This document shows positions 34,930-35,739 of a stretch of 64,000 nt of DNA, in pieces; position 1 is the first letter of the stretch; every line of letters starts with the position of its first letter. The stretch is from assembly GCA_963695435.1 (NCBI GenBank), contig OY968788.1, positions 413,456 to 477,455 of the forward strand. Reading direction: 5' to 3'. The DNA is from an uncultured bacterium. GTDB lineage: Bacteria > Patescibacteriota > Kazan-3B-28. The translations under genes were made by a program, and so were the position numbers. The notes below the pieces were generated by a model, which was given only the letters and a program-made list of their open reading frames with translations, was not told the DNA's origin and searched no databases.

Positions 34930-35207
34930 GCCCCGCCAATTTAAAGCTCGTATCTAGACGTTGTTTCAGTCTTGTCCACGTGGTTCCATAGTTCTTCAAC
35001 ACTAACTCGCGTTTGCGAGCAGCGTGAGGATCTTGATACGCCTCGTAATAGACAAGTTCATATGCACCACGTTTCTGATGTTCAGACAACCTGCGACGCA
35101 AATCGGGCGTTTGCCCGATGTACGGTTTTCCAGTGTCAGCATTTATCAGTACGTAAAGATAATGCATAAATTAATTATACGTCCATACCAACTCTAAATT
35201 GGCGGGG
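34930..35207 (-). mobile_element. Insertion in the 23S helix-25 region: a 19-bp-arm palindromic element (cccgccaatttaaagctcg/agctctaaattggcggg) carrying a GIY-YIG gene. Likely an RNase III-excised intervening sequence.
   Basis: The arms form a perfect extended stem replacing the helix-25 tip. An empty 48-bp copy of the same palindrome is at 35692..35739. Confidence 0.6.
34945..35167 (-). CDS. GIY-YIG nuclease (YhbQ-like) encoded inside the 23S helix-25 insertion.
   Basis: HYLYVLINADTGKPYIGQTPDLRRRLSEH. The ORF-track C-terminal extension (to 34832) is read-through into the palindrome arm and rRNA. Confidence 0.7.
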
Positions 35208-35691
35208 CTCCGACTCTTAAACGAACACACGGTTTCAGGTACTATTTCACTCCCCTCACAGGGGGACTTTTCACCTTTCCCTCACGGTACTAGTTCACTA
35301 TCGGTGAGAAATGATATTTAGCCTTACCAGATGGTCCTGGCAGTTTCCGGCAGGATTTCACGGGTCCCACCGTACTTAAGAAAGAATATATCAGAGTGAT
35401 TTGCTTTTCGTTTACGGGACTTTCACCCTCTATGGTTACCCTTTCCAGGGACCTTCAACTAAGCAAACCATTTTTGACTCCTGAGTCGGTTCTACTGTCC
35501 GACAAAATATTCCCCTTGCAACCCTCTCCTACACAACGCCAGTAGGCTATAAGTGTAAGAAAGTTTAGGCTCTTCCCTTTTCGCTCGCCGCTACTAAGGG
35601 AATAAACATTTGTTCTATTTTCCTCGTGTTACTAAGATGTTTCAGTTCACACGGTTCCCTCCTCACTATCTATGTATTCAATAGTGGGTTC

Positions 35692-35739
35692 CCGCCAATT
35701 TAAAGCTCGTATAAAAACCAGCTCTAAATTGGCGGGAGG
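35692..35739. repeat. Empty copy of the 23S-embedded palindrome (cccgccaatttaaagctcg-tataaaaacc-agctctaaattggcggg) within 23S domain I.
   Basis: Replaces a short native hairpin. Both copies begin the loop with tat. Confidence 0.7.

Follow-up and report, generated by a model that had tools for sequence, protein, structure and literature searches.

We found that hairpin elements bounded by inverted arms take the place of short apical tips of peripheral stable-RNA helices in Kazan-group CPR bacteria. In the stretch of DNA analysed here (64,000 nucleotides from an uncultured bacterium, hereafter the window), helix 25 (H25) of the 23S rRNA gene carries a copy with a predicted GIY-YIG nuclease gene, and helix 9 (H9) carries a copy without an ORF. 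We consider it probable that these hairpins form a lineage-specific family of mobile palindromic elements, which resemble rRNA intervening sequences (IVS) and have the GIY-YIG-bearing form as their master copy. The gene-bearing and gene-less hairpins suggest that some rRNA intervening sequences are mobile elements with a nuclease of their own.

Results

The host of both copies is a 23S rRNA gene on the minus strand (31177..35868; Rfam RF02541, 2089 bits). Its 5' end at 35868 was set by RF02541, and its true 3' end and exon junctions were determined by blastn against an intron-less relative (L050) and E. coli rrlH. The gene is interrupted, all on the minus strand, by a group I intron at about Ec1951 (33160-33447), a group I intron at about Ec2500 (32318-32610) and an intron at about Ec2593 (31482-32224) with a LAGLIDADG ORF (31620-32216; Pfam match LAGLIDADG_1).

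An insertion of about 257 nt was located by covariance-model alignment in the loop that caps the hairpin of model positions 573-583/590-600; by its flanking sequence, this hairpin is E. coli helix 25 (533-560). The native apical tip of about 14 nt, present as GAGCUGGCCGCAAGGCUGGCGAC in L050, is here replaced by a 277-nt unit (34931..35207, minus strand; placed by the same alignment and by its inverted repeat) that consists of a 5' arm, a -10-like hexamer, the GIY-YIG ORF and a 3' arm. The inverted arms that bound the insertion (34930-34953 / 35185-35208) are 24 nt long, 88% complementary and 231 nt apart. In RNA sense, the 5' arm (35185..35207, minus strand) reads CCCCGCCAAUUUAGAGUUGGUAU and pairs with 34931-34953 in the minimum-free-energy fold, and the 3' arm (34931..34953, minus strand) reads AUACGAGCUUUAAAUUGGCGGGG and codes for TSFKLAG, the C-terminus of the nuclease. 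The initial annotation had described a perfect palindrome, which needs correction: the 23-nt arms of the H25 copy form G.U pairs in the rRNA-sense RNA and contain a G/G mismatch, and the right arm quoted for this filled copy, agctctaaattggcggg, is that of the empty copy, whereas at H25 the arm reads aactctaaattggcgggg. Likewise, the "tat" with which both loops were said to begin is not loop sequence, being part of a conserved arm extension, GGUAU/AUACGA.

The empty palindrome that the same annotation had reported in place of a native hairpin proved to be real. It is a 46-nt ORF-less copy of the H25 hairpin (35691..35736, minus strand; -36.9 kcal/mol, z = -8.7) with arms at 35690-35710/35717-35737 separated by a 6-nt gap in the inverted-repeat search. 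Covariance-model alignment and E. coli mapping identify its host hairpin (model positions 131-149) as helix 9; L050 has the native CCUGCGCAUUACGCGUAACC at this site, and an example of native helix-tip DNA is CCGCAAGG. Both the H25 and the H9 regions fold far better than shuffles (z = -7.4 and -8.7, respectively). At 0-1 mismatch the arm motif had four matches, all within the 23S gene; at up to three mismatches it had six, against an expectation of 0.36, a count that none of 100 shuffles reached.

The helix identities, for which alignment to structure models had been proposed as a check, thus hold for H25 and H9. The annotation had also named a position outside helix 25 or a group I intron as findings that would speak against it, and neither was found. 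The idea that helix 25 contains a conventional self-splicing group I intron with a homing endonuclease finds some support in the group I introns and the LAGLIDADG gene at other places in this 23S gene. However, group I matches (RF00028) in the gene were confined to 33172-33460 and 32326-32620, and 34931-35207 gave no Rfam intron match at gathering thresholds and no match to a P1-P9 core. Moreover, the ORF takes up 237 of its 277 nt and the arms 46, the two overlapping in part, so that a core of this kind could not be accommodated, and in a published survey every GIY-YIG ORF of a CPR rRNA gene lay in a non-intron insertion (PMC11270868). As the insert has no RF00028 match, we rejected the intron reading, which we regard as having practically no chance of being correct.

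We then turn to the gene itself. As it stands, the GIY-YIG ORF in the ORF list encodes 111 aa on the minus strand (34832..35167; ATG 35167-35165, stop codon 34832-34834), comprising a conserved part of 79 codons (34931-35167) and 32 read-through codons of mature 23S sequence (34835-34930). There is no stop codon inside the H25 element; the ORF passes through the 3' arm and is then read on into 23S sequence because the usual TGA is CGA in the window copy. The claim that the palindrome encloses the ORF is correct for the start codon, which lies inside the arms, but not for the other end, where the ORF crosses the 3' arm and continues into mature 23S to 34832. Homologues that are 72-77% identical stop after AG, and the C-terminal end of homologues P0001, P0003 and P0004 is ...TSFK[LM]AG. 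The window's own nuclease copy, lacking a stop codon, may be decaying.

The protein matched Pfam GIY-YIG (PF01541) with 40.5 bits against a cut-off of 22.6 (E = 3.4e-10), and the PDB profiles matched were 1ywl and 1zg2. Residues Y5, Y16, G18, R26, H30 and E42 are invariant and correspond to the catalytic set of the superfamily, namely the Tyr of GIY, Tyr-x-Gly of YIG, Arg, His and Glu. In an AF2 model (pLDDT 83), strands and helices were ordered as expected for a beta-beta-alpha-beta-alpha fold, and Foldseek on this model returned UPF0213 1zg2 with probability 1.00 and, second-best, I-TevI 1ln0 with 0.96. Profile score, catalytic residues and modelled fold all place the product in the GIY-YIG superfamily, where, in agreement with the YhbQ-like assignment made initially, it is a UPF0213/YhbQ-type protein and a predicted nuclease. 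Substitution rates (pN 0.15-0.23 versus pS 0.76-0.88; pN/pS about 0.2, with synonymous sites saturated) indicate that the gene is under purifying selection. A TATAAT hexamer that ends 6 nt before the ATG (35174..35179, minus strand; read from the sequence) is a candidate -10 element, and about 10 of 13 arm-flanked GIY-YIG genes have a TAnnnT hexamer ending 6-7 nt before the start codon. A consensus scan of the H25-element region found no full sigma-70 consensus promoter, the -10-like hexamer being the sole lead.

The initial annotation had advised a search of other CPR 23S genes for the palindrome. By metagenome pattern scan, arm pairing and a catalogue of copies, the same hairpin was found at at least 11 sites in Kazan-group sequences. 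According to flanks and E. coli mapping, the 23S sites are H9, H25, about Ec1415, H63, H68 and H98; covariance-model alignments placed further copies in 16S h6 and h9 and in P12 of RNase P RNA, and a single intergenic copy lies on the 3' side of an RRM-protein gene. Nuclease-bearing copies that share these arms occupy H25 in the window and in L001, L005, L023 and L059, and H98 in L057/L058 and L038. The L038 copy was rejected as an H25 copy, since its flanks place it in H98. The copies in other 23S helices, 16S, RNase P RNA and the intergenic site, and the nuclease form in two helices, go beyond the earlier reading.

The full unit is about 276 bp long, with two arms of about 22 nt (cCCGCCAAUUUAGRGYUGGURU ... 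AUACGARCNUUAAAUUGGCGGg) around the 79-aa nuclease gene. ORF-less units, which are commoner in the catalogue than nuclease-bearing ones, consist of the arms plus a variable distal hairpin and measure 44-100 nt arm to arm, with an interior of 12 to 68 nt. In all cases the G.U-bearing sense is the sense of the host RNA, and a transcript in this sense forms a long G.U-containing hairpin that prolongs the host helix. All unique ORF-less copies (18/18) fold better in sense, with a mean of -47.7 kcal/mol versus -33.8 kcal/mol in antisense. Of the 24 pairs in the consensus stem, 10 show compensatory changes; the stem also has one G.U that is invariant, and its G/G(A) mismatch is conserved. Across 14 copies 24 arm columns are invariant, and arm identity across sites and genomes is 91%, versus about 63% for interiors. 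The orientation bias could equally reflect ssDNA hairpins on the lagging-strand template instead of RNA; GC skew gave no information on replication direction.

Site-by-site comparison of seven relatives showed that the presence of the hairpin at rRNA sites is sporadic. L050, the closest 23S relative (exons 91-100% identical to the window), has native tips at H9 and H25; at H68 the situation is reversed, with the hairpin in L050 and a native tip in the window. L050 was rejected as a near-identical strain, since its flanking protein genes are just 74-79% identical at the DNA level, and the presence/absence events are for this reason not demonstrably recent. Some of the pattern is explained by vertical inheritance plus loss. 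A further sign of mobility, beside the differences from L050 and the nuclease form in two helices, is that the H9 copy of L041 has an interior most similar to a 16S copy in L029. In three filled/empty comparisons (H9, H25 and H68), a native tip of 13-15 nt was replaced and no target-site duplication was visible, which makes a classical cut-and-paste transposon with terminal inverted repeats (TIR) unlikely.

Several candidate cases were set aside. The H25 insert of L035, considered as a decayed GIY-YIG copy, has no protein remnant and is a separate 165-nt hairpin. A 101-bp difference between L019 and L040 at the H68 hairpin, in loci otherwise identical, was discarded as a recent excision and is probably a difference of assembly version. 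A protein-pattern scan of species genomes yielded one true relative only, in the Kazan genome (CP011216.1), and no hairpin copies were found in viral contigs.

Could the hairpins resemble one another by chance, or have arisen as artefacts when the palindromes were assembled? Two versions of the same genome, CP011216.1 and IMG Ga0076296_11, do differ by 101 bp around a hairpin, which means that palindromes can disturb assembly. However, the same elements recur at the same positions in independent assemblies (ENA, JGI, NCBI and Logan), the motif counts are far above those of shuffles, and the ORF is conserved under purifying selection. On the first two of these grounds we rejected chance and artefact alike, and their probability is negligible.

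The window also contains a second, unrelated arm family. Its GIY-YIG-bearing copy (60672..60992, minus strand; ORF 60697-60963), recognised by ORF profile search and by an inverted repeat of 24 nt (88%), lies between lgt and an rmuC-like gene. It was also aligned with the ORF-less copies of the family, one of which is about 146 bp long (47669..47816, no strand assigned), the remaining ones being at 42380-42525, 48293-48436 and 53123-53267, which gives four ORF-less copies and one GIY-YIG copy of this family in the window. Elsewhere, inverted arms of about 20 nt surround every small GIY-YIG relative examined. The general occurrence of palindrome-borne GIY-YIG cassettes, postulated in the initial annotation, is supported and extended by this second family and by these relatives.

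These observations bear on the possibility that the hairpin is a functional RNA module, that is, a host-beneficial expansion segment kept in the mature forms of 23S, 16S and RNase P RNA, where it would serve as a shared, sequence-specific signal for protein binding or assembly; selection would preserve the arms, with the GIY-YIG gene as a passenger. Such a module would account for conservation of the arm sequence itself and not of pairing alone (the 24 invariant columns in 14 copies and the 91% identity), for the invariant G.U and the conserved G/G(A) mismatch, for the strictly sense orientation with its stronger RNA fold, and for stable-RNA sites that all lie in peripheral, insertion-tolerant helices. 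It is hard to reconcile, however, with sporadic presence among relatives at every site, with an intergenic copy, and with an interior that varies from 12 to 68 nt and also exists in an ORF-bearing form. Furthermore, the same architecture occurs with unrelated arms around other GIY-YIG genes, some plainly intergenic, as is typical of selfish repeats. We regard a functional module as unlikely.

A further possibility is that two parasites are involved: an independent hairpin repeat (MITE- or REP-like and mobilised otherwise), and a GIY-YIG homing-endonuclease gene that targets the hairpin centre and uses empty hairpins as homing sites. The ORF indeed lies always exactly between the arms, in place of the variable interior, ORF-less copies outnumber filled ones, and homing endonucleases are found among GIY-YIG enzymes, with I-TevI as the second-best fold match. 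Yet the protein is a catalytic domain only (79 aa), without an I-TevI-type DNA-binding domain, and no other candidate mobilising gene was found beside any copy. In addition, the arm itself codes for the C-terminus and each protein clade has its own arm family, which argues that arms and gene are one co-evolving unit. A pair of independent parasites is in our view improbable. The picture of empty and filled palindromes in the initial annotation corresponds to this two-parasite reading.

Discussion

For the preferred reading, a mobile IVS-like hairpin with its own nuclease, we propose the following course of events. The nuclease would recognise the conserved arms in the form of either a palindromic duplex or an extruded DNA hairpin, and its cleavage would drive copying or maintenance of the elements, with ORF-less copies depending on the nuclease in trans. 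Arms of about 22 nt are short for RecA-dependent homing, and we know of no established role of UPF0213 proteins in mobility. The nuclease may be translated from a leaderless transcript starting at the internal -10-like element; without the 5' arm, such a transcript would escape stem formation. In precursor RNA, RNase III would cut the stem of about 20-29 bp and remove the insert, leaving a host RNA whose pieces stay together by base-pairing, as happens at H9, H25 and H45, the classical IVS sites. Fragmentation of 23S by RNase III at H9/H25, by analogy with these sites, is plausible, with indirect support from a stem of at least 20 bp and from the presence of rnc, which CPR bacteria retain (PMC12641178). 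The RNase III signature motif was not found in the 64-kb window, a result that says nothing of the remaining genome.

More broadly, we tentatively raise the possibility, to which we give less credence than to the Kazan-group family itself, that small UPF0213/YhbQ GIY-YIG proteins are the mobility enzymes of an unrecognised class of prokaryotic hairpin elements of about 0.3 kb with ORF-less derivatives, one lineage of which colonises stable-RNA helix tips (23S, 16S and RNase P RNA). If the proposal is true, both a definite origin and an enzyme can be named for rRNA intervening sequences, 35 years after the first suspicion that these are remains of transposons. The present case, in which an IVS-type hairpin has a recognisable nuclease ORF, near-identical arms return at 11 or more positions in three stable RNAs and the complete cassette occupies two helices, makes the question of their origin directly testable. 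It also provides a possible account of the GIY-YIG ORFs in CPR rRNA genes, which did not agree with a homing scheme in a recent survey, and a hint at a function for the large, uncharacterised UPF0213/YhbQ family. On the practical side, caution is advisable, since the short repeated hairpins that CPR bacteria have in their genes for 16S, 23S and RNase P RNA can interfere with assembly, alignment and the design of primers.

Among known repeats, Neisseria Correia elements, Rickettsia palindromic elements (RPE) and REP/REPIN with RAYT are short, multi-copy and hairpin-forming. Transcribed Correia elements are cut by RNase III, RPE lie in RNA or protein genes, and REPINs have a partner enzyme gene, present in single copy and flanked by the repeats. 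The elements described here differ from all of these in that a GIY-YIG protein takes the place of a DDE or HUH (RAYT) transposase, target-site duplications were not seen, and the targets are overwhelmingly stable-RNA helix tips. As in TIR transposons and MITEs, inverted repeats are common to coding and short non-coding copies at several loci; however, target-site duplication was absent at H9, H25 and H68, and the GIY-YIG gene is the sole ORF, with no known transposase (DDE, HUH or serine/tyrosine recombinase).

Like UPF0213/YhbQ (PDB 1zg2, 1ywl), the I-TevI catalytic domain and SLX1, the protein is a GIY-YIG catalytic domain by sequence and by predicted fold. In contrast to these, it is minimal (79 aa, without an added DNA-binding domain) and its gene lies inside an rRNA-gene hairpin whose arm codes for the C-terminus. 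A classical homing-endonuclease gene is directed at conserved sequence in the unoccupied allele of its own site and mostly resides in a self-splicing intron or an intein; here the gene is outside introns and the sites are several different, poorly conserved helix tips. In 16S and 23S insertions of CPR bacteria, 30 GIY-YIG ORFs have been counted, none in introns (Tsurumaki et al. 2024, PMC11270868), and GIY-YIG ORFs in non-intron CPR rRNA insertions are attributed to Brown 2015, as that work is cited. The survey by Tsurumaki et al. (PMC11270868), which took insertions of at least 100 bp, covers the same phenomenon at the gene level; the arm-flanked cassette, the short derivatives and the RNase P RNA copies are not described in it. 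Searches of the literature likewise turned up neither small GIY-YIG elements with flanking arms nor hairpins of this shared kind.

The closest known system is the 23S IVS. At the usual sites, helices 9, 25 and 45, an extended stem-loop takes the place of a small tetraloop and is cut by RNase III (PMC4990558). IVS have long been suspected to be mobile, and their origin and spread have been unexplained since 1990; hypotheses include a "remnant of a transposition" and a "mobile element whose ORF provides mobility" (PMC4990558). The IVS of Salmonella (H25/H45), alpha-proteobacteria (H9) and Coxiella and Leptospira (H45, with an S23p ORF) likewise replace a small apical loop, have complementary termini on an extended stem-loop, are sporadic among relatives, and in some cases contain an ORF. 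The elements described here differ in that their ORF is GIY-YIG and not the S23p/23S_rRNA_IVP protein, in that one arm sequence occurs at many helices, in three stable RNAs and at one intergenic site, and in that their excision by RNase III is a prediction. Nevertheless, they occupy the apical part of a peripheral helix with the native loop replaced, their complementary termini form a long stem that continues the host helix, and they are sporadic among related rRNA genes. The arm-flanked GIY-YIG hairpin is, in these respects, a new form of the known rRNA intervening sequences.

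Results

The feature in helix 25 (H25) is an intervening sequence (IVS)-type hairpin element carrying a GIY-YIG nuclease gene, and a hairpin in helix 9 (H9) of the same 23S rRNA is its ORF-less sibling. Both are members of a repeat family whose copies cap peripheral helices in the stable RNAs of Kazan-group bacteria. The host gene lies on the minus strand and codes for a bacterial large-subunit rRNA; it starts at 35868, and its Rfam match ends at 32170. Comparison with its closest 23S relative, the intron-less locus L050 (L numbers denote loci of relatives), and with E. coli rrlH placed the 3' end beyond this, at about 31177; 5S rRNA was found at 30614-30730 (Rfam). 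Rfam reported two group I introns in the 23S gene, and the same comparison revealed three introns, at 33160-33447 (about Ec1951), 32318-32610 (group I, after about Ec2500) and 31482-32224 (743 nt, after about Ec2593, with a LAGLIDADG ORF at 31620-32216). None of the three is present in L050.

In the covariance-model alignment, the hairpin formed by model positions 573-583/590-600 has about 257 nt inserted into its apical loop. The flanks of the insertion (..AGUCGGAGC / GCGACGGCGUGCCUUUUGUAGAAUG) matched E. coli 531-577, so that the location in helix 25 proposed by the initial annotation was confirmed. Inverted arms at 34930-34953 and 35185-35208 delimit the insertion, and the ORF occupies 34832-35167 on the rRNA strand (Pfam GIY-YIG, above threshold). 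The empty copy noticed in domain I is likewise real: helix 9, at model positions 131-149, is taken up by a 46-nt hairpin (35691-35736) whose arms are the same. The arm motif is far more frequent in the window than in shuffled sequence, and fold z-scores were -7.4 and -8.7 for the helix-25 and helix-9 regions. The palindrome, described earlier as perfect, contains one or two G.U wobbles and a G/G mismatch in rRNA-sense RNA, the antisense equivalents being A/C mismatches. The right arm quoted for it is that of the ORF-less copy, and the "tat" said to open both loops belongs to a conserved inner stem, GGUAU/AUACGA.

Nor do the arms enclose the ORF. The 3' arm itself encodes the last seven conserved codons (TSFKLAG), and relatives end the gene with a TGA that belongs to the native 3' strand of helix 25 and directly follows GGCGGGG. 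The window has CGA in its place, and hence the frame continues for 32 codons past the arm into mature 23S sequence. The read-through (34832-34930) adds a 32-residue basic tail to the nuclease, and the change turns a helix-25 G.U pair into a stronger G-C. The nuclease frame of the helix-98 (H98) copy in L057 also extends 14 codons into its flank; the element itself lacks a stop codon.

The window nuclease consists of the GIY-YIG catalytic domain alone, with invariant Tyr5, Tyr16, Gly18, Arg26, His30 and Glu42. Among proteins of solved structure it is closest to EF2693 and BH0048, both of the UPF0213 family, and then to SLX1 and I-TevI; an AlphaFold model (pLDDT 83) gave matches to BH0048 and to the catalytic domain of I-TevI. 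Protein search returned four close homologues with 72-77% identity. All four contain ...TSFK[LM]AG, which is the C-terminus in three, while P0002 has 14 more residues; the genes of three lie in helix 25 of 23S in syntenic organisms, and that of P0002 in helix 98. One complete genome, candidate division Kazan bacterium GW2011_GWA1_50_15, is among these relatives. Two remoter homologues (53-54% identity) are also encoded within 23S genes, at a hairpin of domain I close to E. coli position 273; their arms are a variant of those in the window. Among four H25 copies, per-site differences were 0.15-0.23 at non-synonymous and 0.76-0.88 (saturated) at synonymous sites, which indicates purifying selection on the nuclease gene over a long divergence. 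No Shine-Dalgarno sequence was evident upstream of the ORF. Of 13 GIY-YIG genes flanked by arms, about 10 have a TAnnnT hexamer whose end lies 6-7 nt ahead of the start codon (TATAAT at 35174-35179 in the window). These data suggest a leaderless transcript without the 5' arm, as a lead only, since a consensus promoter scan of the region gave no match.

The loci of these relatives were found to have more arm copies elsewhere in the 23S genes that hold the homologues. With a 21-nt arm pattern, 31 loci were then retrieved from metagenomes, 18 with a matching second arm or ORF and 13 being single-arm chance matches. According to Rfam, flanks and E. coli mapping, the 23S sites are H9, H25, domain III near E. 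coli 1415, H63, the H68 tip and H98. Others are h6 and h9 of 16S rRNA, P12 of RNase P RNA, and an intergenic site immediately downstream of an RRM-protein gene, where the hairpin is on the transcribed strand; nearly all sites are tips of stable-RNA helices. The RNase P RNA concerned (L033 2424-3051; 628 nt against a 367-position model) carries, besides the P12 hairpin, two large insertions of 54 nt and, near the 3' end, about 125 nt. Spacing between the 16-nt arm cores is 12, 27-28 or 62-68 nt in ORF-less copies and 244 nt in ORF-bearing ones. Identity between copies from different sites and organisms is 91% in the arms but only about 63% in the interiors, the latter under lenient alignment.

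In every case, the strand whose arms pair with G.U wobbles has the sense of the host RNA. Folding gave a single long, irregular hairpin for each of the 18 unique ORF-less copies, and the sense strand was always the more stable of the two (mean -47.7 versus -33.8 kcal/mol in antisense). The 24-pair consensus stem from 14 aligned copies has compensatory changes at 10 pairs, one invariant G.U and a conserved G/G(A) mismatch. The hairpin is therefore likely to form in RNA; this is not proven, because a single-stranded DNA hairpin of the same strand would give an equal asymmetry.

Occupancy of the sites differs among relatives. In L050 the tips of H9 (CCUGCGCAUUACGCGUAACC) and H25 (..GCUGGCCGCAAGGCUGGC..) are short and native, and the hairpin is at the H68 tip, where the window is native (..CAACCGCAAGGUGC..). 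In all three comparisons the element takes the place of a 13-15-nt native tip, and no target-site duplication was seen. Because protein genes of L050 are only 74-79% identical to those of the window, these events cannot be shown to be recent. The same arms flank an ORF at H25 in the window, L001, L005, L023 and L059, and at H98 in L057/L058 and L038; thus, the whole cassette has evidently changed helices. The H9 interior in L041 is closer to the 16S copy in L029 than to other H9 copies. Over 8 kb, two versions of the Kazan genome, CP011216.1 (GenBank; L019 5749-5849) and Ga0076296_11 (IMG; L040 6959), differ only by a stretch of 101 bp that spans the H68 hairpin; this is probably a palindrome-related difference between assembly versions.

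A native tip, CCGCAAGG (a GCAA tetraloop on a CC/GG stem), recurs in the lineage, at 33525-33540 and about 34100 in the window and in helix 25 and the Ec1415 region of L050; such tips are those that the hairpin replaces in relatives. Helix 25 is also a hotspot for other hairpins: arms CCCCTCAC..GTGAGGGG are ORF-less there in L041 and carry a GIY-YIG gene in L016, and in L035 this helix has an unrelated hairpin of 165 nt. In L036, a hairpin of about 100 nt with arms like those of the L013 element is located in helix 9.

Two further GIY-YIG genes are present in the window. One (ORF 60697-60963, minus strand, 88 aa), between lgt and an rmuC-like gene, belongs to a second arm family: its copy (60672-60992) has 24-nt arms, CCCRGTAGARRATTTTRGA, unrelated to those of the rRNA hairpins. 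Four ORF-less intergenic copies of about 146 bp (42380-42525, 47669-47816, 48293-48436 and 53123-53267) lie around rpmE, upstream of prfA and beside a tRNA. The other gene lies on the plus strand (9981-10289), upstream of miaA. On its two sides is a weaker 25-nt inverted repeat, GTCATCCTGAGCGTAGCGAAGGATC / GATTCTTCACTGCGTTCAGAATGAC, which is imperfect (20/25 complementary by eye; 9955-10290 with the gene) and which the repeat finder did not report. In other organisms, five more small GIY-YIG relatives, three intergenic and two in 23S genes, all have arms of about 20 nt starting CCCC or CCCG, and an ORF-less copy belonging to one of these arm families occupies helix 25 in a different organism. 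Given this broader pattern, "palindrome-borne GIY-YIG cassettes", as the initial annotation put it, is a fair description.

Discussion

We propose that the GIY-YIG nuclease, which would be made from a leaderless transcript, may drive the spread of the hairpins, and that these may be removed from the RNA by RNase III, an enzyme kept in CPR bacteria (PMC12641178). In a survey of CPR rRNA genes that considered insertions of 100 bp or more, 30 GIY-YIG ORFs were counted, every one of them in an insertion other than an intron, and were judged to lie outside a homing scenario; inverted arms, ORF-less copies and RNase P RNA are not mentioned there (PMC11270868). Our literature search found no description of arm-flanked small GIY-YIG elements or of shared hairpins. 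Classical IVSs, long suspected to be mobile, resemble the Kazan element in location, stem and sporadic distribution, and replacement of the native tip without target-site duplication is exactly as described for them; however, their ORFs are not nucleases (PMC4990558), whereas that of the Kazan element is a GIY-YIG nuclease.
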